From IMG/VR virus record IMGVR_UViG_2565956624_000008: a DNA stretch of 64,000 bases, one strand, 5' to 3'. Under the pieces are notes generated by a model, which was not told the DNA's origin, did not search any database, and saw only the letters and a program-made list of their open reading frames with translations. The DNA comes from a virus. Taxonomy: Duplodnaviria > Heunggongvirae > Uroviricota > Caudoviricetes. Positions 1,255 to 10,993 of this stretch are shown here, one piece after another. The position numbers and the translations under genes are program-made. Within the stretch, counting starts at the first letter, position 1. Each line of letters starts with the position of its first letter.

Positions 1255-2094
1255 TCACGCATCGCTATCCAACAGCAAATCATCTGCGCGGGTGCGATCA
1301 AACGTAGGCGTTGCTTTCACAATAGTGCCGCCCGGCGTTGCAGTGATCGGGGCGTTAATCGACGTAACTTCAGTAAGCGAAGTTGTATCCGAAGTTTCAA
1401 ACCAGCAGAATGCTTTTTCGGTATCAGAAATCTCATTCAAAGTGATCATGTCGGCCTGTTCATTTACAACAACCGACAAATAGAGCGTAAGCCCATCAAA
1501 CACTATATGCAGTGGCAGTAGAGGCTTTACGAACTGATTAAACTTTCTGAGAATTTCTTCTGTAATTGCGGACTGATCTATCGTTCCAGTAATACCCATT
1601 GTCCGGGCCAGGTCGTTTATGGGAATACTGATCATTCCTCTGGAAGTCAGAAACATCTCGCCGAATGTGCCGCCGGTGGTTTCCAGTGTGCTTTCTGGAA
1701 TCAGGACCGTGCCATAGGGATGACGTTCAAAGTCCACCGGAGCATATATTGGATCCCATAAAACCGATATACCGTTAAATTCGCGATAAATTGTCTGGTT
1801 TATAGGGCGTTCAGTACCCTTAAAATGGATCTCATCAAACCGCTGTTGTAACAACATCGGAACGGAAGATGAATTCGACGTTCTGATAGTAAAAAACTGG
1901 CCAAGTTCATTTGTCCTAGTCTCCAGATCCTCCTTGCTCATGGAGAAAATAGACTTCCGGTTGGTAATTCGCTCCAACCATGGGTCAACAAAGGTGTCCA
2001 TCATTGACTGAACCAAATCAGCCAATGATTTATAAAGTAATGACTTTTGCTTAGCTGATGTAAGCCGGTTATTAAACCAGGAACGCTGCATCAC
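1255..2094 (-). CDS. Baseplate protein (P1 gene 16 position)
   Basis: 279-aa ORF overlapping the upstream ORF by 4 bp inside the tail-fibre/baseplate operon; synteny only. Confidence 0.35.
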   Translation of the reverse strand: MMQRSWFNNRLTSAKQKSLLYKSLADLVQSMMDTFVDPWLERITNRKSIFSMSKEDLETRTNELGQFFTIRTSNSSSVPMLLQQRFDEIHFKGTERPINQTIYREFNGISVLWDPIYAPVDFERHPYGTVLIPESTLETTGGTFGEMFLTSRGMISIPINDLARTMGITGTIDQSAITEEILRKFNQFVKPLLPLHIVFDGLTLYLSVVVNEQADMITLNEISDTEKAFCWFETSDTTSLTEVTSINAPITATPGGTIVKATPTFDRTRADDLLLDSDA

Positions 2095-3524
2095 TCCTCC
2101 TCATACGAAATATTAAAGGTGGAGTTTTCTGTATCCAGATAAACGAAATCGTAAAAGCCGTTGGACTCATTCCACTCGACAAATTCCAGATAAAAGTCGC
2201 GGAAATAACCCAGCGTTTCGATAAATGCCCAAACGTCTTTTTTCTTGATTAGGATGTACTTGCCGACACGGTTCGGATCAAAGAAAGTTGAGTCACGCCC
2301 AAATTTTGTTTCCAGTGCCGACTTCAGCTCATCAGTCACGTTCTCAATGGTCAGGCTTGCCGATATCCGCCCAGTGATAGTGATCTTAAAGGGGAGTTTT
2401 CTGACCTCTTTATACGAGAATTTCTTGTTCAACTCATTCGGCACCTTCTTAAAGGCAGCCAGGATCACTTCTTCAAGCTCTGACTGGCTTTTGTTTGGAT
2501 GCCATCCTGAAATAAATATCTTATTGATATTCCGAACATTATAAGCACCATCTAATTTCTCTTGCTGGCCTTCGCCCCATGCCTTTACCCAGGACAGTCC
2601 CGGGATGTTACGCACCAAAAAATACGTATAGTCCCCGCCCCATACGACCTGATCATCATAGGCAAGGTAATATTGTGCACGATTACGTGTGATCTCCGTT
2701 GTTTCGGCATCGGTACCTGCGGTTATGGGTGTCGTTGTCTTAACTGAAATCAAATTAGCTAAATTAGCCGCAGAATCGACAGGCGTCAGGTTTTGGCCAG
2801 CAACCAGGGTTATATCTCCGTTGGTGCACCATACCTTAAGTGTAATGGTCGAGCCTTCTGGCGGTATTTGCCCAATTAGCCCATCACCGAATCGAACCCC
2901 CAACTGCTCGGATGGCTTATAAAACTCAACGTAGACCTGGCTTTTACTACCGGCTAACCGGAACATAGTGCTGGAAGACCACTGCGTGGTCTTACCATCG
3001 GTCGTCACGAATACTTCCAGCTTATAGCAGACAGCAGTGAGAGCCTTTGATAACACGACTTCCAGAAATTCTTTGGCTGCCGTAACGGTATATGTCACCT
3101 CCTGGATTTCCAACTGTGCCACTTCTACCGTACCGGTGCCGTCAACCAACCTGCATACATCCATAGTCATGTAAGGGTACTGGTCGTCAGATATTAAAGG
3201 CATATTTTTGGGGATTACCGCTGGGGCATCTTCACTTGTGGCGGTGATCTCAATCATCCCCGATGACGGTGTTGGCTTGGTACCAACGTAACTATTCGTT
3301 TCTGCCGCTGCCAGGATAGAGGAACGCCGCGTCGCGGTCGATATAAAGCCTTCAGCCAGCGCCGCATCGGCATACTGAAAGCACCTGTAGACAATCTGGG
3401 TAATAAACAATGTCAGCATCGAGACAAATTGAGAGCCGACAAACTTCGACCAGAATGAATCTTTCTCGACAAGCTCTTCAAACTCTGCACGAATACTGTC
3501 TTTAGTCGGTGTTGTTTTACTCAT
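2091..3524 (-). CDS. Baseplate wedge protein (BplA-like)
   Basis: 477-aa ORF, translationally coupled to neighbours; position between the gpW-like gene and tail-fibre genes. Confidence 0.4.
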   Translation of the reverse strand: MSKTTPTKDSIRAEFEELVEKDSFWSKFVGSQFVSMLTLFITQIVYRCFQYADAALAEGFISTATRRSSILAAAETNSYVGTKPTPSSGMIEITATSEDAPAVIPKNMPLISDDQYPYMTMDVCRLVDGTGTVEVAQLEIQEVTYTVTAAKEFLEVVLSKALTAVCYKLEVFVTTDGKTTQWSSSTMFRLAGSKSQVYVEFYKPSEQLGVRFGDGLIGQIPPEGSTITLKVWCTNGDITLVAGQNLTPVDSAANLANLISVKTTTPITAGTDAETTEITRNRAQYYLAYDDQVVWGGDYTYFLVRNIPGLSWVKAWGEGQQEKLDGAYNVRNINKIFISGWHPNKSQSELEEVILAAFKKVPNELNKKFSYKEVRKLPFKITITGRISASLTIENVTDELKSALETKFGRDSTFFDPNRVGKYILIKKKDVWAFIETLGYFRDFYLEFVEWNESNGFYDFVYLDTENSTFNISYEEE

Positions 3525-3880
3525 AGCACCACGTCCTGTGTGATAGTTATATCCCTGATACGAATGGATATTTTCAACTTATCAAAAGCATCTCCCTCGG
3601 CTACTGACAAGCCAGAAATCGGTATGTCAGGTAAATCTACCGTCAGTTTTTGCAACAGCATTGCCTCAACCGCAATTTGAACATGCGACAAGTTGGTCGG
3701 TTCGTGTTTAAACAGCGGTAAAACATTGCCCCATGACGGATCTCCGTATACCTCACCCTGATAAGTGTTTAGCCACTCATATAAACGAGCGCCCCAGGCC
3801 TCCTCCTGGGACTCATACGTTTTTACGCCGGATAACTCCAGCGTCAGCAAAGGATCAATTTCGTTATTGTTGGCCATCAA
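3521..3880 (-). CDS. Small baseplate protein (PmgA / gpW-like position)
   Basis: 119-aa ORF whose start overlaps the sit stop (ATGA-type junction). Confidence 0.35.
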   Translation of the reverse strand: MMANNNEIDPLLTLELSGVKTYESQEEAWGARLYEWLNTYQGEVYGDPSWGNVLPLFKHEPTNLSHVQIAVEAMLLQKLTVDLPDIPISGLSVAEGDAFDKLKISIRIRDITITQDVVL

Positions 3881-6800
3881 TCAACTCTCGCGTAGTCATT
3901 CATCAACGGATCATCAATTGACAGTGGTACCGTGCGCATAACGCCCGGCTGAGGCGTGCTGACCTTTACGACAGTTCCCTGGCCTTTCGCCGAGTCTTTG
4001 GTGTGCTCTTCAATCCTGGCAAGCAATGAGGTCATCTGCGCAAACAGCCGCTTCGTTTCACCATCAAGTGAAACGGTATTATCAGCCAACTGCATTGTCG
4101 GCTTGGCACCGGAACCGCCAAGGTCACTAATAACCTGCCCGTCTATCTGCATACGACCGGTTGGTTGCTGCAAATCGTTGGCGGCAGTCGTCACCTGGGA
4201 CGTGGAGGCTGGTTCAGGCGCATTATTTTTCCGCATCCCCGGCGAGTTGCGGAGTTTATCGAATAGTCCATCAATCCCCATTTGTGCGCCGAGATGGTCA
4301 AAGTAACTTGAGTTGTTGGCCACCGGACGCGCCTCTTCAACTGGCATCGGAGTATCAACATACACATTGCCAGCTGCTGTTGCGGTCCCCTTCTCTCGTG
4401 CGCGTTCTTCTAGCGTTCCCTGAACGACTTCCCGACGCATCCCCCGGCCATTCATGAATTTGTTGACCAGATCGTTAACGCCAACAGCATTGCCGATTTT
4501 GTCGACCAGACCGCCTTTCTCAAACGGGCTATCACCAGGGGTAAACGCCAGGCCAGTATACTGATCGATAACAGCGTTATCAGGCAGTGGTCCCCTCACT
4601 CCATATTGCGCCCCACCCTGTGCTCCTGCTCCAGGTGTATAGATTTCACCACCTAAATAGCGAGCACGATGAGTATTGACCTTGATCGCGTACTCACGGT
4701 TTTCTTTCGATAAGTCACCGGTGCCTTTTTTCCACTTATTAATAGTGCCAAACCCAGCATTATATGCAGTGATGGCCTCGTTTAAGTCTCCATTGGCTTG
4801 CTTAAGATACTTGCTCATGAGAAGAGCCGCAGCTTCTGCCGATTTCACAGGATCAAACGATTCACCTTCAGCTAAGCCAGTCTCTTCACGAGCAATCCCC
4901 GTGAACTGAAACATCCCCAGAGCACCGGTTTGGGATTTTGCATACGGATTACCACCAGATTCAGTTGCAGCAATCGCGTAAAGAGTGCCTTCTGGAAGAC
5001 CGTATTTATTCTCTAGTTCGGCAAAATACGGAGCCAACTTATCGAGATTTGCCTTACCTTCAGCGCCAAGACTTCCGACTTTTACATCTAAGTTGCCATT
5101 GTTGTAAGTATCCGCAGCTTTCTGAATGTCATTCCTGGTGCCAGTGGTATTAAGCGACGATGATGACGAGCTATTTTGACCAATAGCTTTATCAATTTTC
5201 TGCAACGCGCTATTGCCCGTTTCTACGGCATTTGCATTGATAATCTGATTGGCAGTTTGTTTAACTGTTTTATTGCTATCTTTCGCTGTGTCCAGTGCCG
5301 CATTTATCACGCGGGTAGCAATATTACTCTGTTTGGCATCGGATTCAGTTTTAGAATCAGACGTCTCCTGGTGGCTATTAACCGGAGCTTTTAACTCCGG
5401 AGTGATTTCTTTCGCATTAGCCTCGCCGATCGGATTGGGTATTTTTGATACAATCATTGCCGCAGGGGTATTTTTAACGGCATCAACCGCTGCATCTAAT
5501 GCTTTACCAGGTAAATTTTTAACCCCATCCCAAATATTACCAGCCGCCTCTTTAATGTGTTTCCCTGGGTTCTTAATGAAATCAATTGCACTATCAATTG
5601 CATCACTGAAAACCTGTTTCAGGTTATCAACAGTAAAGAAGTCTTTGATGGCATCCAGCTTTTCAAGCAGCTTATTAGATGTATCGCTAAACCATGCTGA
5701 AACAGCATCACCAATCTTTGCTGTGTAATCTTCGAACTTGGTAGAAATGGTGTCGCCAAGGTTAGAAATATATGTTTCTAAGTTGGTAATCCCACTATCA
5801 ATGGCCTGGGCAATACTTTCCGTCGAAAATGATTGCAACATATTGCCGATATCCTCAAATCCAAGTGATTTGAGAACCTCACCAATGGCGCTGCTAATAC
5901 CAGATACCAGTCCCCCCATATCAAGAACATTGGCTAACGTATAAGCGGCTTTTTGCTGGAATGATGGCTCTTGTCCTGATTTAAGCCCAAACGCTCGACG
6001 TTGCGCTTCTGTATCATTCCAACCGGTTACCGCATCATAAATACCTCCAGCCACTGTGCCGACTAAGGGAATTGCGCGTAACGCCCCTTTACCAACTGCC
6101 TTTAATCCAAATTTACCTGCTGCCCGGGCAGCCAAATCTCCACCTTCATGGGCGATAGTCTTCTTGCCACCACCGCGTAGCATTCCTACAAGTTTCTTTG
6201 CCCCCAGAGCGCCAAAAGCGAGTGCTCCAGCTTTTTTCAGCATGCCACGCCCCATTAACAACGACGCGACGCCACCGGCCCCCTTCCCTAACAGGCTAAA
6301 TAGTTTGGACAGCAAGCCGCCCTTCTTTTTCCCGGTGTTTTTGGCTATCTGATCAAGGGCGCTGAGAATCTTGTCATTGCCCTCTTTAATTTCGCTGGTC
6401 TGCTCCTGAAGTTCCTGAACCGTCCGTTTTTGGGTGTTAACCTGAACGACATCGGCACTATTTTGCGATTTACGCCTAAAAAAACCTTTTCTACGGCTGT
6501 TATCGTCATTGCCACGAATCACATCGGCAATAGACTTTCTGGCGCCATTAAGCGATCCACCAACTTCTTTTGATATCCCGCCAAGCTCCTTCCCTGCTGC
6601 CCACAATGGACCAGCAACGGCATAACCTAACGCATCGACGGCACGAGTCTCTGAAGGGTTACCTATGCCTTCAGCTACTTTTGACAGTTTTTTTAATAAA
6701 CCTGATTCAGCATTTAGACGCTCATCATCCTCTTTGCGCCTGGCCTTTTCAGCACGTTCAGCACGGGCATCTTCCGCTGCGGCCTTACTCCCTGACTTTC

Positions 6801-7566
6801 CAATAAAACGACCACGCGCATCGCGTTGGTTTTGGCTTTTTTGCGCACCGCCTTTTTGATCGAACATTTCGCGAGCGTGTTCGGCTGCTTCGGTCCGTTG
6901 TGCCTTTATATCCTCTGATATAGCCTTCCTGCGTCTTTTTTTACCCTTTGGTGTAGTTGATTTGGCCTGCTGTTCCTGTTGAGCAATGCCCTCCTGAACT
7001 ACACGAGAAACGTCCCCTAAATTAAGCCGTTTCATTGCGTCAACAATAGGGTCTACTGATGGCGCATTGGCCACAAAGTCTGGCCGGGAATTTTCGATTG
7101 TTCGATTTAATGCCGACACACTGCGAGATACTGGGTCAACCGTTGCAACGCGTTCCCCTTTCAAATCACGAGCGAGTTTGACCGTTTCTAACCGCTGTGC
7201 TTTAACATCCTCTGTTATTGCCTCTCTTCGTCTATTTGGGGGATTGTGCGCTGTTGGTGCAGCCTGCTGTTCACGGTTAGTGACTTTGTCCTCCCGTATA
7301 CGAGAAACGTCCCCTAAATTAAGCCGTTTCATTGCGTCAACAATAGAGTCCACTGATGGCACATTGGTCACAAAGTCAGGACGTGAATTTTCGATTGTGC
7401 GATTTAATGCCGACACACTGCGAGAGACAGGATCAACAGTTGCAACTCGTTCCCCTTTCAAATCTTCAACAGCTTCCCGAATACCTGCAAGCTCTTCCAG
7501 CTCTTTCGCGCTGGCGGTTTCAACTGTCCTTATAACATCGTCAATATTGGCGTTTTTTCTTTCCAT
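3877..7566 (-). CDS. sit: Sit-like tape-measure / injection protein with lytic transglycosylase (SLT) domain
   Basis: 1229-aa ORF; SLT-type motif GNPYAKSQTGALGMFQF; long Ala/Gly/Lys-rich low-complexity stretches; internal 99-aa tandem repeat; position upstream of baseplate genes as in P1. Confidence 0.75.
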   Translation of the reverse strand: MERKNANIDDVIRTVETASAKELEELAGIREAVEDLKGERVATVDPVSRSVSALNRTIENSRPDFVTNVPSVDSIVDAMKRLNLGDVSRIREDKVTNREQQAAPTAHNPPNRRREAITEDVKAQRLETVKLARDLKGERVATVDPVSRSVSALNRTIENSRPDFVANAPSVDPIVDAMKRLNLGDVSRVVQEGIAQQEQQAKSTTPKGKKRRRKAISEDIKAQRTEAAEHAREMFDQKGGAQKSQNQRDARGRFIGKSGSKAAAEDARAERAEKARRKEDDERLNAESGLLKKLSKVAEGIGNPSETRAVDALGYAVAGPLWAAGKELGGISKEVGGSLNGARKSIADVIRGNDDNSRRKGFFRRKSQNSADVVQVNTQKRTVQELQEQTSEIKEGNDKILSALDQIAKNTGKKKGGLLSKLFSLLGKGAGGVASLLMGRGMLKKAGALAFGALGAKKLVGMLRGGGKKTIAHEGGDLAARAAGKFGLKAVGKGALRAIPLVGTVAGGIYDAVTGWNDTEAQRRAFGLKSGQEPSFQQKAAYTLANVLDMGGLVSGISSAIGEVLKSLGFEDIGNMLQSFSTESIAQAIDSGITNLETYISNLGDTISTKFEDYTAKIGDAVSAWFSDTSNKLLEKLDAIKDFFTVDNLKQVFSDAIDSAIDFIKNPGKHIKEAAGNIWDGVKNLPGKALDAAVDAVKNTPAAMIVSKIPNPIGEANAKEITPELKAPVNSHQETSDSKTESDAKQSNIATRVINAALDTAKDSNKTVKQTANQIINANAVETGNSALQKIDKAIGQNSSSSSSLNTTGTRNDIQKAADTYNNGNLDVKVGSLGAEGKANLDKLAPYFAELENKYGLPEGTLYAIAATESGGNPYAKSQTGALGMFQFTGIAREETGLAEGESFDPVKSAEAAALLMSKYLKQANGDLNEAITAYNAGFGTINKWKKGTGDLSKENREYAIKVNTHRARYLGGEIYTPGAGAQGGAQYGVRGPLPDNAVIDQYTGLAFTPGDSPFEKGGLVDKIGNAVGVNDLVNKFMNGRGMRREVVQGTLEERAREKGTATAAGNVYVDTPMPVEEARPVANNSSYFDHLGAQMGIDGLFDKLRNSPGMRKNNAPEPASTSQVTTAANDLQQPTGRMQIDGQVISDLGGSGAKPTMQLADNTVSLDGETKRLFAQMTSLLARIEEHTKDSAKGQGTVVKVSTPQPGVMRTVPLSIDDPLMNDYARVD

Positions 7567-7647
7567 GATCTTATCGCCTACCGTTTCGGTTTAAGTTTTT
7601 CTTCCAGTTTCTCCAACAGGAAAAACGCATAGGATTCAGTAAGCCTT

Positions 7648-8529
7648 TCAGCGTCCTGAATCGGTATACCCCCATACAAAACCAGGTTGGACACTAAGGT
7701 CTGATAGCTTTTCAATCCCCACCTGTGGAATGAAGTCGGTAGCCCGAAAGGGCACCCACAGACGGGTATACGCACCCTCTGTGGACTCCTTTGTATCCTG
7801 GTTTGGGCATTTGTGCGGCGGGAGACGAAGACGCATTTCGCCTTTATCGATGTAGCACGGTAAACCATGTTCGAGCTTTTCATGAGCCAGCCGGATGTGT
7901 GCCGCCAGCTTCATAAATTCAGTATCAATGGCCATCCGTTTGATCGTTTCATAACGACGCTCAGCCTGCTCTTCACGAGTACCGCTAACATCGTTATAAA
8001 GTTCACACTGATAAGCGAATTCCCAAAAACGCAAATCAACGATCGCTTCTTTGAATTCCGCGTCGTCTTCAGGTGGCAATGCTGCTCGGCGCATCTCCAG
8101 CATTTCCATTGCCCAACCATCAAGCGGCACGATACGCCATTGATAAGGCACGCCCTCTACAGACACCTCAATATCGTCAATGAACGGTTCCACTTCCAGG
8201 ACCTGGATATCTTCAGCCAGAGCATTCATATCGCAATCGTAATAATGCTCTTTACCGCAATGTTTACAGGTGTAGGTAAATGTCTCGATCGGTGTTTCGC
8301 GGGAGCCAGTAAATATCCACCATAACGCGGTAATCCGGTCCTGTGCCGTCCATTTCAGTGGATCATGTTTCGCAGCTTCAGCCAGCAAGGCTTTTAAATA
8401 CGCTGTTGTCTGCTGTTCTTGTTCCTCCGGTGTTATCGAGTTGAAACGCATCGCATCAGCAATATTTGGCTGACGGAACTGGATTAATTCAGTTGGCCGC
8501 GATGGTAGCGGGAAAAGGGGTAAAAGCAT
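7648..8529 (-). CDS. Hypothetical late protein with CxxC pair
   Basis: 293-aa ORF upstream of sit; contains YTCKHCGKEHYYDCD. Confidence 0.3.
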   Translation of the reverse strand: MLLPLFPLPSRPTELIQFRQPNIADAMRFNSITPEEQEQQTTAYLKALLAEAAKHDPLKWTAQDRITALWWIFTGSRETPIETFTYTCKHCGKEHYYDCDMNALAEDIQVLEVEPFIDDIEVSVEGVPYQWRIVPLDGWAMEMLEMRRAALPPEDDAEFKEAIVDLRFWEFAYQCELYNDVSGTREEQAERRYETIKRMAIDTEFMKLAAHIRLAHEKLEHGLPCYIDKGEMRLRLPPHKCPNQDTKESTEGAYTRLWVPFRATDFIPQVGIEKLSDLSVQPGFVWGYTDSGR

Positions 8530-8543
8530 CCTTGCTCCTTAAT

Positions 8544-9155
8544 TTAAAGAGAAAAACTAAAGCCCAGAAGGGAAGCCAAAGAACTTGAGGATTGGTTAAA
8601 CGTGCTGTGCAATGCGAAGGTCATTGGGAATGACTTAAATTCCGTGACCTGATCCCGCGCATAGGTGACATCGCCGGTAGTAACCGGGAATACCGTCATC
8701 TCATTTTCCAGTTTGGTTAAACCGGAAGACAGCAACCGATAAATACGCACATTGAGCAAATATTTAGACGGTATATTCCCAGTACCGTCCGGATTGATCA
8801 CCCGACTTTTTGCCGTCTTAAACCAGTCCAAAACGAGGCCATCAACGGTATCCCTGACCATCATTGTTATCTGCCCAGGCGAACGCTCCGTTGGTTGAAG
8901 GATATTCCCTCCGCCGATTTTAATCGTTTCATATTCGATGCTGTAATCGTGGTAGGTAATATCTTTGGCAAAGAAGTCTGCCCCCTCCAGTCCATCAACT
9001 TCGACAGAGAACTGCCATCCTTGCGCGAACAACATTTTGTTCATGATGATTGACGTCAGCTTACCAACTTCCCGCTCACCAACGCCGGAGCCAAATAATG
9101 TCGTCGTTAATGCCGAAGATACATAAGACTTTACTGAAGCAACATTAAGCCCCAT
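8544..9155 (-). CDS. Putative tail structural protein
   Basis: 203-aa ORF in the late operon; beta-rich composition; no motif recognised. Confidence 0.3.
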   Translation of the reverse strand: MGLNVASVKSYVSSALTTTLFGSGVGEREVGKLTSIIMNKMLFAQGWQFSVEVDGLEGADFFAKDITYHDYSIEYETIKIGGGNILQPTERSPGQITMMVRDTVDGLVLDWFKTAKSRVINPDGTGNIPSKYLLNVRIYRLLSSGLTKLENEMTVFPVTTGDVTYARDQVTEFKSFPMTFALHSTFNQSSSSLASLLGFSFSL

Positions 9156-9790: not shown

Positions 9791-10267
9791 TTATTTTGCG
9801 CGCTTCAGGCAGCCATCTTCAGGTGCCGCGTTGAAAAGCTCTGCGGCCTTACGTAGCGTAAATGTTGCGATTTTTTTTCCGTCTACGTATGCATCGAATG
9901 TTTTAACTTCCATATCAGGGGTATCTGACCAAAAACCATACCAGTAACTATCACCCACAGAGGAACCGATAGAACTGATAGGATATTCATCATCACCAAC
10001 TTTCAGCGTTATTTGTTCTTTTTTAGCATCAAATGACTCACCGCCAGGTTCTGTTTTCATGAGAGTGAGTAGTCGTGTTCCTACTTGATTGGGATCCGTA
10101 TTATTAAATCCAACATCGCACTCAAATGTAAGCGTATAATTATCTTTGCTGGAAACAGCATAAGAGCGAACGCCATGAGTCTCGCTGGTGGACCATTTGC
10201 TTACATTTGCCATTGATGAAAACGGAGTAAGCAAAGCAAGAATTAGAAAATATCGTTTGATGCGCAT
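9791..10267 (-). CDS. Secreted protein (signal peptide)
   Basis: N-terminus MRIKRYFLILALLTPFSSMA is a typical Sec signal; 158 aa. Confidence 0.4.
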   Translation of the reverse strand: MRIKRYFLILALLTPFSSMANVSKWSTSETHGVRSYAVSSKDNYTLTFECDVGFNNTDPNQVGTRLLTLMKTEPGGESFDAKKEQITLKVGDDEYPISSIGSSVGDSYWYGFWSDTPDMEVKTFDAYVDGKKIATFTLRKAAELFNAAPEDGCLKRAK

Positions 10268-10318: not shown

Positions 10319-10993
10319 TCACCATTCATAGGGTAAATTAAGCGCTTTTAAACCTTGCTGGAAAGTATTAAGAGAGCCGTTTTTTTGTTGTTCCATTTTT
10401 TCGCGTGCAGCTTTCTCATACTGCTCCATCCGTTGGTTATACTCTTGCAATTCCTCCGGGGAGAGGTTTCCCATTGGGGAGTTTGTACCCGGCCCCCTGG
10501 CCCGTTCTTCAAGCGTACCCTGAACGTTTTGATGGCGCATTCCCGGGGCGTTTCTGATTGAATCAATGCCATTTCTTCCAACGTCTTCTTTATTAACGGC
10601 ATTGCTCGCCACCAGTACGCCCCAGCTAGGGATAGCAAAATCAGGAGCGGTTTCGCATGCCTTTACCATATAATCGAAAGAGCTTCGATTGATCTCGTTT
10701 GCGTCGGGATTTAATAGGCGAGAATATTGATATTTAGCATTTTCGTTGGTTGCGACTTTATACAGTTCTTGCTGCACCATCGCTTCAGAAAGTTTAAGGC
10801 GTTTCATATCTGATAGTAACTTCTTGCGCATGGATTCGTCTTGACTGACAGCAAAACCGTAAACGTGCCCAAGGTATTTCGTATAATCGGTACAAATCTC
10901 CTTTACGCTTGATGCTGCATTAACAGTCCCAGCCATAAATAATAACGGTAGTAATAGTTTTCTCATTATAACCTCACCTGCCTTATAACTCAT
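10319..10993 (-). CDS. Periplasmic protein, candidate superinfection-exclusion (Sim-like); likely true start ~10966 (MRKLLL)
   Basis: Signal peptide MRKLLLPLLFMAGTVNA; size about 25 kDa; sits beside immI where P1 carries sim; C-terminal motif GMRHQNVQGTLEERARGPGT resembles a Sit segment. Confidence 0.45.
   Translation of the reverse strand: MSYKAGEVIMRKLLLPLLFMAGTVNAASSVKEICTDYTKYLGHVYGFAVSQDESMRKKLLSDMKRLKLSEAMVQQELYKVATNENAKYQYSRLLNPDANEINRSSFDYMVKACETAPDFAIPSWGVLVASNAVNKEDVGRNGIDSIRNAPGMRHQNVQGTLEERARGPGTNSPMGNLSPEELQEYNQRMEQYEKAAREKMEQQKNGSLNTFQQGLKALNLPYEW

Follow-up and report, generated by a model that had tools for sequence, protein, structure and literature searches.

The window, that is, the whole 64,000-nt stretch of viral DNA that was analysed, is 98–99% identical over its wider extent to P1-like plasmids, and the element is, to judge from its sequence, a P1-like (IncY-type) phage-plasmid. 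The gene under study, sit (3877..7566, minus strand), encodes a 1229-aa tape-measure protein/structural injection transglycosylase. It shares 96–97% nucleotide identity with the sit genes of P1, P7, JL22 and RCS47 over 96–97% of the query. The P1 gene order tub-pmgB-sit-pmgA-bplA is kept in the window (ORFs 8544..9155, 7648..8529, 3877..7566, 3521..3880 and 2091..3524). An SLT lytic transglycosylase domain (PF01464; E = 3.3e-27) was identified at residues 847–956 (4699..5028, minus strand), within the C-terminal third of the protein. Identity, synteny and domain content all agree with the sequence-only reading, in which the gene had been named as sit. The putative tape-measure chaperone gene pmgB (7648..8529, minus strand; PHROG 1854) lies immediately upstream and the baseplate wedge gene pmgA (3521..3880, minus strand) immediately downstream, so that sit is located just downstream of a tail chaperone gene and upstream of the baseplate/hub genes, as is the case for tape measures. 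PHROG 2533, a 1130-position profile, matches Sit in two stretches.

Whether gp6 or Sit is the tape measure of P1 has long been debated (PMC9024508). Sit has been detected in P1 virions by LC-MS/MS and was annotated as the tape measure from its size and its helicity, the latter reported from Quick2D, and a chaperone role was proposed for PmgB in the same study (PMC9024508). In a P1 cryo-EM study, in which 52 tube rings and 53 sheath rings were counted, Sit is called the TMP; its maps did not resolve Sit and gave only density of low resolution at the centre of the baseplate (PMC12810830). The earlier description of the product as a tape-measure-type protein is in line with its treatment in both of these studies. 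CRISPRi has shown that sit is essential in P1 (PMC10695390).

Close to its N-terminus, Sit contains two consecutive in-frame units of 297 nt, located at 7168–7464 (unit 1) and 6871–7167 (unit 2) on the minus strand and corresponding to residues 35–133 and 134–232. When the 1229-aa protein was compared with itself, 71 of 99 residues were identical at an offset of 99 aa starting from residue 35, and at the other offsets between 90 and 109 aa no more than 13 of 99 were. At the nucleotide level, the two units are identical at 234 of 297 bases (79%) and differ at 63, and at other offsets within sit an in-frame stretch of 297 nt reaches at most 111 identical bases. A repeat search paired 6956–7167 with 7253–7464 at 84%; Tandem Repeats Finder did not report the unit pair. 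The in-frame 297-bp tandem duplication proposed in the sequence-only reading is confirmed by this one outstanding offset of exactly 99 aa, and the extent (6871–7464) and residue ranges given there coincide with the units found here.

The units follow a single-copy N-terminal leader (residues 1–34; 7465..7566, minus strand) that is identical at 97–102 of 102 nt across the alleles examined. Each unit is composed of a core, its first 165 nt, and a tail, its last 132 nt. The core of unit 1 (C1; residues 35–89; 7300..7464, minus strand) and the core of unit 2 (C2; residues 134–188; 7003..7167, minus strand) encode the sequence DLKGERV...RLNLGDVSR and are identical at 152 of 165 positions (92%), close to the approximately 90% over some 165 bp noted earlier. 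The 46-mer said to occur twice at a distance of 297 bp was found exactly twice, at 7003 and 7300. The longest exact homology between the cores is a 47-nt run at their 3′ end (7300..7346, minus strand), which is identical to 7003–7049. The tail of unit 1 (T1; residues 90–133, IREDKVTNREQQAAPTAHNPPNRRREAITEDVKAQRLETVKLAR; 7168..7299, minus strand) and that of unit 2 (T2; residues 189–232; 6871..7002, minus strand) share approximately 62% nucleotide identity without indels. T2 is orthologous to the sole tail of P1 and P7 (92–93% nucleotide identity), and 43–49 of its 50 diagnostic sites are common to single-unit alleles.

Each unit contains 5–6 prolines. Analysis of hydrophobicity found no heptad, hendecad or period-11 periodicity above shuffle controls; a period-3.0 peak across both units did exceed the shuffles and was attributed to the repeat itself. 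An AlphaFold2 single-sequence model of Sit residues 1–330 is almost all helix, at low confidence (pLDDT 58.6, pTM 0.20). Among the supplementary data of the P1 proteome study, no tryptic peptide from the P1 unit was found.

The number of units varies among the relatives of the window. A single unit with a T2-type tail is present in P1 (Sit of 1140 aa), P7 (1130 aa), SJ46, one E. coli strain and Escherichia sp. MOD1-EC7003, and the sit genes of JL22 and RCS47 also have one unit. Two units, arranged as in the window, are present in phage phi456 and 673R5. The 297-nt unit is the only large difference between the window sit and that of P1 and P7. A comparison of sit length in related genomes, which had been suggested as a check on the repeat, gave the same picture: sit of P7 and JL22 is 297 nt shorter than the window sit, that of P1 is 267 nt shorter, and the phi456 protein has 1231 aa. 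That P7 sit is shorter by exactly 297 nt indicates that the length is not compensated elsewhere in the gene. Phage phi456 forms plaques and myovirus particles (PMC10967188), indicating that the two-unit allele works.

T1 is a diagnostic segment for multi-unit alleles; it was found in none of 56 parsed single-unit alleles from IMG/VR and in none of the one-unit records fetched individually. A T1 probe (window 7167–7302) matched 137 of the 479 PLSDB P1-like plasmids bearing that part of sit, and in 131 of these 137 plasmids, from Escherichia, Salmonella, Klebsiella and Shigella hosts, the T1 junction is at least 99% identical. The tblastn count (139 of 484 PLSDB records at 90% identity or more) is consistent with the probe count. 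T1 is also present in 198 of the 470 sit-bearing complete RefSeq E. coli genomes, and the sample of parsed IMG/VR loci contained 56 one-unit and 19 two-unit alleles. A total of 100 PLSDB records match an 800-nt region at an identity of at least 99%, with rows at 99–100% over the full length. A scan with one genome per species retrieved only four loci. The window therefore carries the common two-unit allele. Since approximately 60–70% of the relatives, two outgroups included, have one unit, the possibility raised earlier that all relatives share the same two units does not hold.

Small length variants of the module also occur, as indicated by a single-unit allele on IMG/VR contig 2579778745_000003, in which an in-frame 12-nt deletion leaves a unit region of 285 nt. 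The annotation of multi-unit alleles varies as well. RefSeq (PGAP) starts sit at Met234 in an identical two-unit allele (NZ_CP027199.1, 17555–20596). Met234 (window 6865–6867) directly follows unit 2, and with this start the leader is lost together with the two units. Among the two-unit rows listed for RefSeq E. coli genomes, about half have no annotated feature over T1.

Alleles with three units were also retrieved. T1 occurs twice in eight PLSDB records and nine E. coli genomes, and three-unit alleles make up approximately 2% of alleles. In all five that were checked (pXH987-OQX, pEC15-3, p211899A_LBHALD, pEC2_5 and 813R1), the three units lie at an exact 297-nt spacing, and the CDS of 1340 aa is intact in pEC2_5 and p211899A. 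Cores were scored at the 13 positions that distinguish C1 from C2 of the window. The middle unit of the three-unit alleles always consists of a unit-2-type core joined to a T1 tail, as would be expected if core 2 of one copy had crossed over unequally with core 1 of another. The pattern of the middle core is 2222222222222 in pXH987 and pEC15-3 and 2222222222211 in p211899A and pEC2_5. These different switch points suggest that at least two events took place. The pure C2 middle core of the pXH987-type alleles places the crossover at or after the 47-nt run, which is likely a preferred crossover site.

Two-unit alleles display nine mosaic patterns in the unit-1 core, and their unit-2 core is almost always pure; the mosaics point to repeated exchange between the copies. 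Most single-unit cores carry unit-1 variants up to nt 66 of the unit and mostly unit-2 variants from nt 81 onward, and a few single-unit alleles have neighbouring switch points. Based on this pattern, the extra sequence relative to P1 is a contiguous 297 nt comprising the 3′ part of C1, T1 and the 5′ part of C2, that is, a circularly permuted, diverged unit (approximately 7102..7398, minus strand, with the boundary ambiguous by about 14 nt). The three-unit alleles and the mosaic cores bear out the earlier suggestion that the repeat is a recombination substrate. The accompanying warning of an assembly-collapse hazard stands for the three-unit alleles, within which exact repeats extend over 132–165 nt, but not for the two-unit allele, where the risk is low (79% identity, longest exact run of 47 nt).

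Divergence between the units was compared with that between sit genes. The cores differ with a dS of 0.28 and a dN of 0.025 (dN/dS approximately 0.09), 10 of their 13 differences being synonymous in the sit frame, and the tails with a dS of 0.87 and a dN of 0.45. In the 600 nt downstream of the repeat, the dS between the window sit and P1 sit is 0.045. The inter-unit values far exceed the latter, indicating that the extra segment is much older than the radiation of the sampled P1-like sit alleles. Two distant relatives were used as outgroups. Sit of Cronobacter phage JK004 (1068 aa) is approximately 45% identical over most of its length, and the N-terminal region encoded by Salmonella plasmid pCVMN1543 is approximately 39% identical; each has one homologous unit, and the outgroup tails are rich in Pro, Ala and Ser. 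The single unit in both distant relatives indicates that one unit is ancestral. Collectively, the feature is interpreted as an old, derived and recombinationally active copy-number polymorphism.

Two histories fit these data. The segment could derive from an old duplication whose outer parts have been held similar to single-unit alleles by ordinary recombination, or it could have been introgressed from an unsampled lineage. When 1.84 billion representative proteins were searched with a unit profile, four matched, and those examined were P1-type Sit or fragments of it; a donor for the diverged T1 tail or a distant family was not found in this protein set. Sensitive blastn with the T1 probe gave no match below 95% identity in PLSDB, and the matches of a word-indexed protein search were for the most part truncated fragments, without any distant relative among them. 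A 1009-aa database protein (P0022) begins with approximately 220 residues of Sit, covering the end of T1, unit 2 and downstream sequence, and passes after ...GKELGGI into a long protein of unrelated sequence. Either a chimeric assembly or a genuine recombinant would explain it.

We consider the following account, taken as a whole, to be reasonably probable. A copy-number-variable module of 99 residues lies near the Sit N-terminus in P1-type contractile-tailed phage-plasmids. The two-unit allele arose long ago from a one-unit ancestor and is common today. In its extra 297 nt the linker-like tail has diverged strongly, and the 165-nt core has been kept similar by exchange between the two copies in addition to purifying selection on the protein. 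The cores still undergo gene conversion and unequal homologous recombination, which generate the three-unit alleles and the mosaic cores, and contractions back to one unit probably also result from core recombination. Finally, added units would be expected to give a longer ruler.

The last step concerns tail length. Sit length increases with unit number in uncompensated steps, from 1130 to 1229 to approximately 1340 aa. One PmgB protein accession is found next to sit in elements with one unit and in elements with three, so that a matching change in the neighbouring gene is not required. The C-terminus of tape measures is, as far as is known, located at the baseplate or tip end. Together with the position of the SLT domain in the C-terminal third, this suggests that the Sit N-terminus should mark the head-proximal end, where tube growth is expected to stop. 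Each added unit would be expected to lengthen the ruler by approximately 15 nm (99 × 1.5 Å) to 19 nm (from the P1 ratio of 52 rings per 1140 aa); with 5–6 prolines in every unit, the value of 1.5 Å per residue is only a guess. By the P1 ratio, approximately 4.5 (4–5) more tube and sheath rings would be predicted per unit. The repeat, its polymorphism and polarity, the recombination signatures and the protein-level constraint are observed; an effect of unit number on tail length, which we infer, has roughly even to slightly better prospects.

With a typical ring rise of approximately 4 nm, the 52–53 rings of P1 imply a tail of approximately 200 nm. If so, almost all of Sit would be needed to span the tube, favouring a module that counts towards length. 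A P1 tail of 120 nm was assumed in the published argument for Sit (PMC9024508); set against the value near 200 nm implied by the 52/53 rings (PMC12810830), the argument from Sit residues per unit of length needs redoing. The papers on phi456 (PMC10967188) and on P1-like plasmid diversity make no mention of tail length or of the sit repeat, and tail-length figures for two- or three-unit phages were not found in the literature searched. 673R5 and 813R1 appear to be genome-derived; in that literature they came up only in a genome-mining preprint and a strain survey, and particle data for them were not found.

A further extension of the ruler reading, which we regard as rather doubtful, is that the 99-aa module acts as a discrete length quantum, with one, two and three units giving approximately 52, 56–57 and 61 rings, and that the frequency of the two-unit allele (29–42%) is held by selection, for example through the depth of the host envelope, O-antigen or capsule. 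If true, this would be the first natural tape-measure copy-number polymorphism segregating within one contractile-tailed phage-plasmid group.

Among the alternatives, one accepts the polymorphism as real and leaves tail length unaffected: the N-terminal module would lie outside the measuring part of Sit, and extra copies would be tolerated and nearly neutral. We regard this as a credible possibility, though not the probable one. A non-measuring module of this sort could serve for docking of the chaperone or terminator, form a flexible stretch on the head-proximal side, or leave the particle together with the DNA. A study of phage TP901-1 describes the N-terminal 154 aa of its tape measure as an essential assembly region required for infectivity (PMC5099701). 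An N-terminus that is essential for assembly and is not a simple ruler indicates that an N-terminal module need not measure length. The same possibility is favoured by the absence of Sit from the resolved parts of the P1 maps (PMC12810830), by the proline-rich, fast-evolving tails (dN 0.45), whose outgroup counterparts are Pro/Ala/Ser-rich, and by the intermediate frequency at which the allele segregates, without any co-variation being apparent. However, both cores are under strong purifying selection (dN/dS approximately 0.09), indicating that both copies matter at the protein level. In addition, the 1140 aa of P1 Sit must already span 52 rings, which, on partly inferred grounds, would leave little to spare. 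Engineered duplications in other tape measures also argue against a neutral module. In-frame duplications and deletions have reportedly been engineered in lambda gpH (Katsura, 1987) and T4 gp29 (Abuladze et al., 1994), and in both proteins the duplications are reported to lengthen the tail; by the T4 case, the ruler would hold for contractile tails.

A recent de novo tandem duplication in this genome or clone, as implied by the sequence-only reading, is highly improbable. The exact in-frame period of 297 nt and the 92% identity of the cores would be expected of such an event. However, the units differ at 63 of 297 positions, their dS (0.28–0.87) is 6–19 times the sit-wide divergence from P1 (0.045), and the junction is at least 99% identical in 131 of the 137 T1-bearing plasmids, spread over E. 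coli, Salmonella, Klebsiella and Shigella. Together with T1 in 198 E. coli genomes, these values refute a recent origin.

A role of the repeat as DNA or RNA rather than through the protein, such as a doubled set of binding sites or a promoter inside the gene, is likewise very unlikely. Nothing specific points to such a role, apart from an antisense ORF (7067..7594, plus strand) that spans the repeat and is itself without support. Against it, most differences between the cores (10 of 13) leave the encoded Sit residue unchanged, and the sit frame is preserved in one-, two- and three-unit alleles; a function at the DNA level was rejected on these grounds.

An assembly artefact, either a false duplication or a mis-join of two alleles, is practically negligible as an explanation: repeats can be mis-assembled, and an unrelated short-read assembly contains an orphan contig of 236 bp from this region, but the 79% identity of the units allows reads to be placed unambiguously, and the repeat recurs in hundreds of independent complete assemblies, including 100 PLSDB records at 99% identity or more over the 800-nt region, 198 complete E. 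coli genomes and an isolated phage, which also sets aside the earlier concern that only one copy might be real. The orphan contig (JQCU01000535.1, 236 bp in its entirety) belongs to an Acinetobacter idrijaensis short-read assembly. At 99% identity it matches a sit unit (core plus T2), and it is probably a repeat-bounded assembly fragment of E. coli/P1-like contamination.

The preferred reading, a tape-measure module that varies in copy number, can be set beside known systems. The sit gene of the window is orthologous to that of P1 and P7, with the same neighbours, SLT domain, leader and unit sequence; unlike the window protein, P1 and P7 Sit have one 99-aa unit and lack T1, and the window gene exceeds that of P7 by 297 nt. 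Tape measures with copy-number-variable units of 11 aa have been described (Belcaid et al., 2011; PMC3271669). The TP901-1 study covers repeats in the tape measure and deletions (PMC5099701), and a general statement on tape-measure variation by tandem units is made in PMC13585406. The sit repeat resembles the Belcaid units and the TP901-1 repeats in consisting of in-frame tape-measure units that have been duplicated and lost, so that close relatives differ in copy number. It differs from both in its unit of 99 aa, its extreme N-terminal position, its range of 1–3 copies and the strong divergence of half of the unit. A unit of the 11-aa type was not found in Sit, whose hydrophobicity spectrum has no period-11 peak. 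The Sit repeat is the same kind of feature as the Belcaid type and not a member of that family.

In its predicted mechanism, in which tail length follows ruler length, the repeat would resemble the lambda gpH, T4 gp29 and TP901-1 constructs. Those laboratory constructs mostly concern the central part of the protein; unlike them, sit offers a natural allelic series at the N-terminus, known here from sequence. The repeat was not mentioned in the P1-focused papers searched and is apparently undescribed for P1. It is an ordinary kind of feature, already established for tape measures, and not a new principle.

The natural, near-identical alleles with one, two and three units provide a ready series for testing the ruler model by counting tube rings. 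Such counts would show whether Sit is the ruler, whether its N-terminus measures, and the number of residues per ring in a contractile tail. The repeat is also a hotspot for recombination, both in a transducing-phage backbone that is in wide use and in phage-plasmids with resistance genes. In addition, RefSeq annotation omits the repeat region in at least one record, and the exact repeats of 132–165 nt in three-unit alleles could collapse in short-read assemblies.

Several other features of the window were observed. The 81-nt stretch that separates the pmgB stop (7648) from the sit ATG (7566), seemingly intergenic, looks coding in the +1 frame of pmgB (window 7578–7683, minus strand). This frame stays open over 110 codons and closes 11 nt short of the sit ATG; the corresponding stretches lie at 2941–3030 of L019 and at approximately 800–897 of L101. 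Downstream of the pmgB stop, all four variable sites among 9 distinct sequences are synonymous third positions of the +1 frame. Conservation of the peptide ...IQDAERLTESYAFFLLEKLEEKLKPKR extends to the distant JK004, whose annotation lists it as gene_9 (29 aa), and to pCVMN1543; at the site of the JK004 ATG, P1-type sequences read ATA. These observations suggest a +1/−2 frameshift extension of PmgB, like that of G/GT-type tape-measure chaperones, which is not described in the P1 papers searched.

At the position of P1 simC/simB/simA, the window carries two other ORFs with apparent signal peptides (10319–10993 and 9791–10267, minus strand), and P1 SimC resembles neither of them. A 47-aa segment of the 224-aa ORF matches Sit residues 1026–1068 (22 of 47 identical, including GMRxxxVQGTLEERAR; pairwise E = 1e-7). 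The product of this ORF may be an alternative protein for superinfection exclusion, mimicking a portion of Sit. Three tRNA genes, Asn-GTT, Thr-TGT and Met-CAT, are located at 31336–31489 and 33490–33565 on the plus strand.
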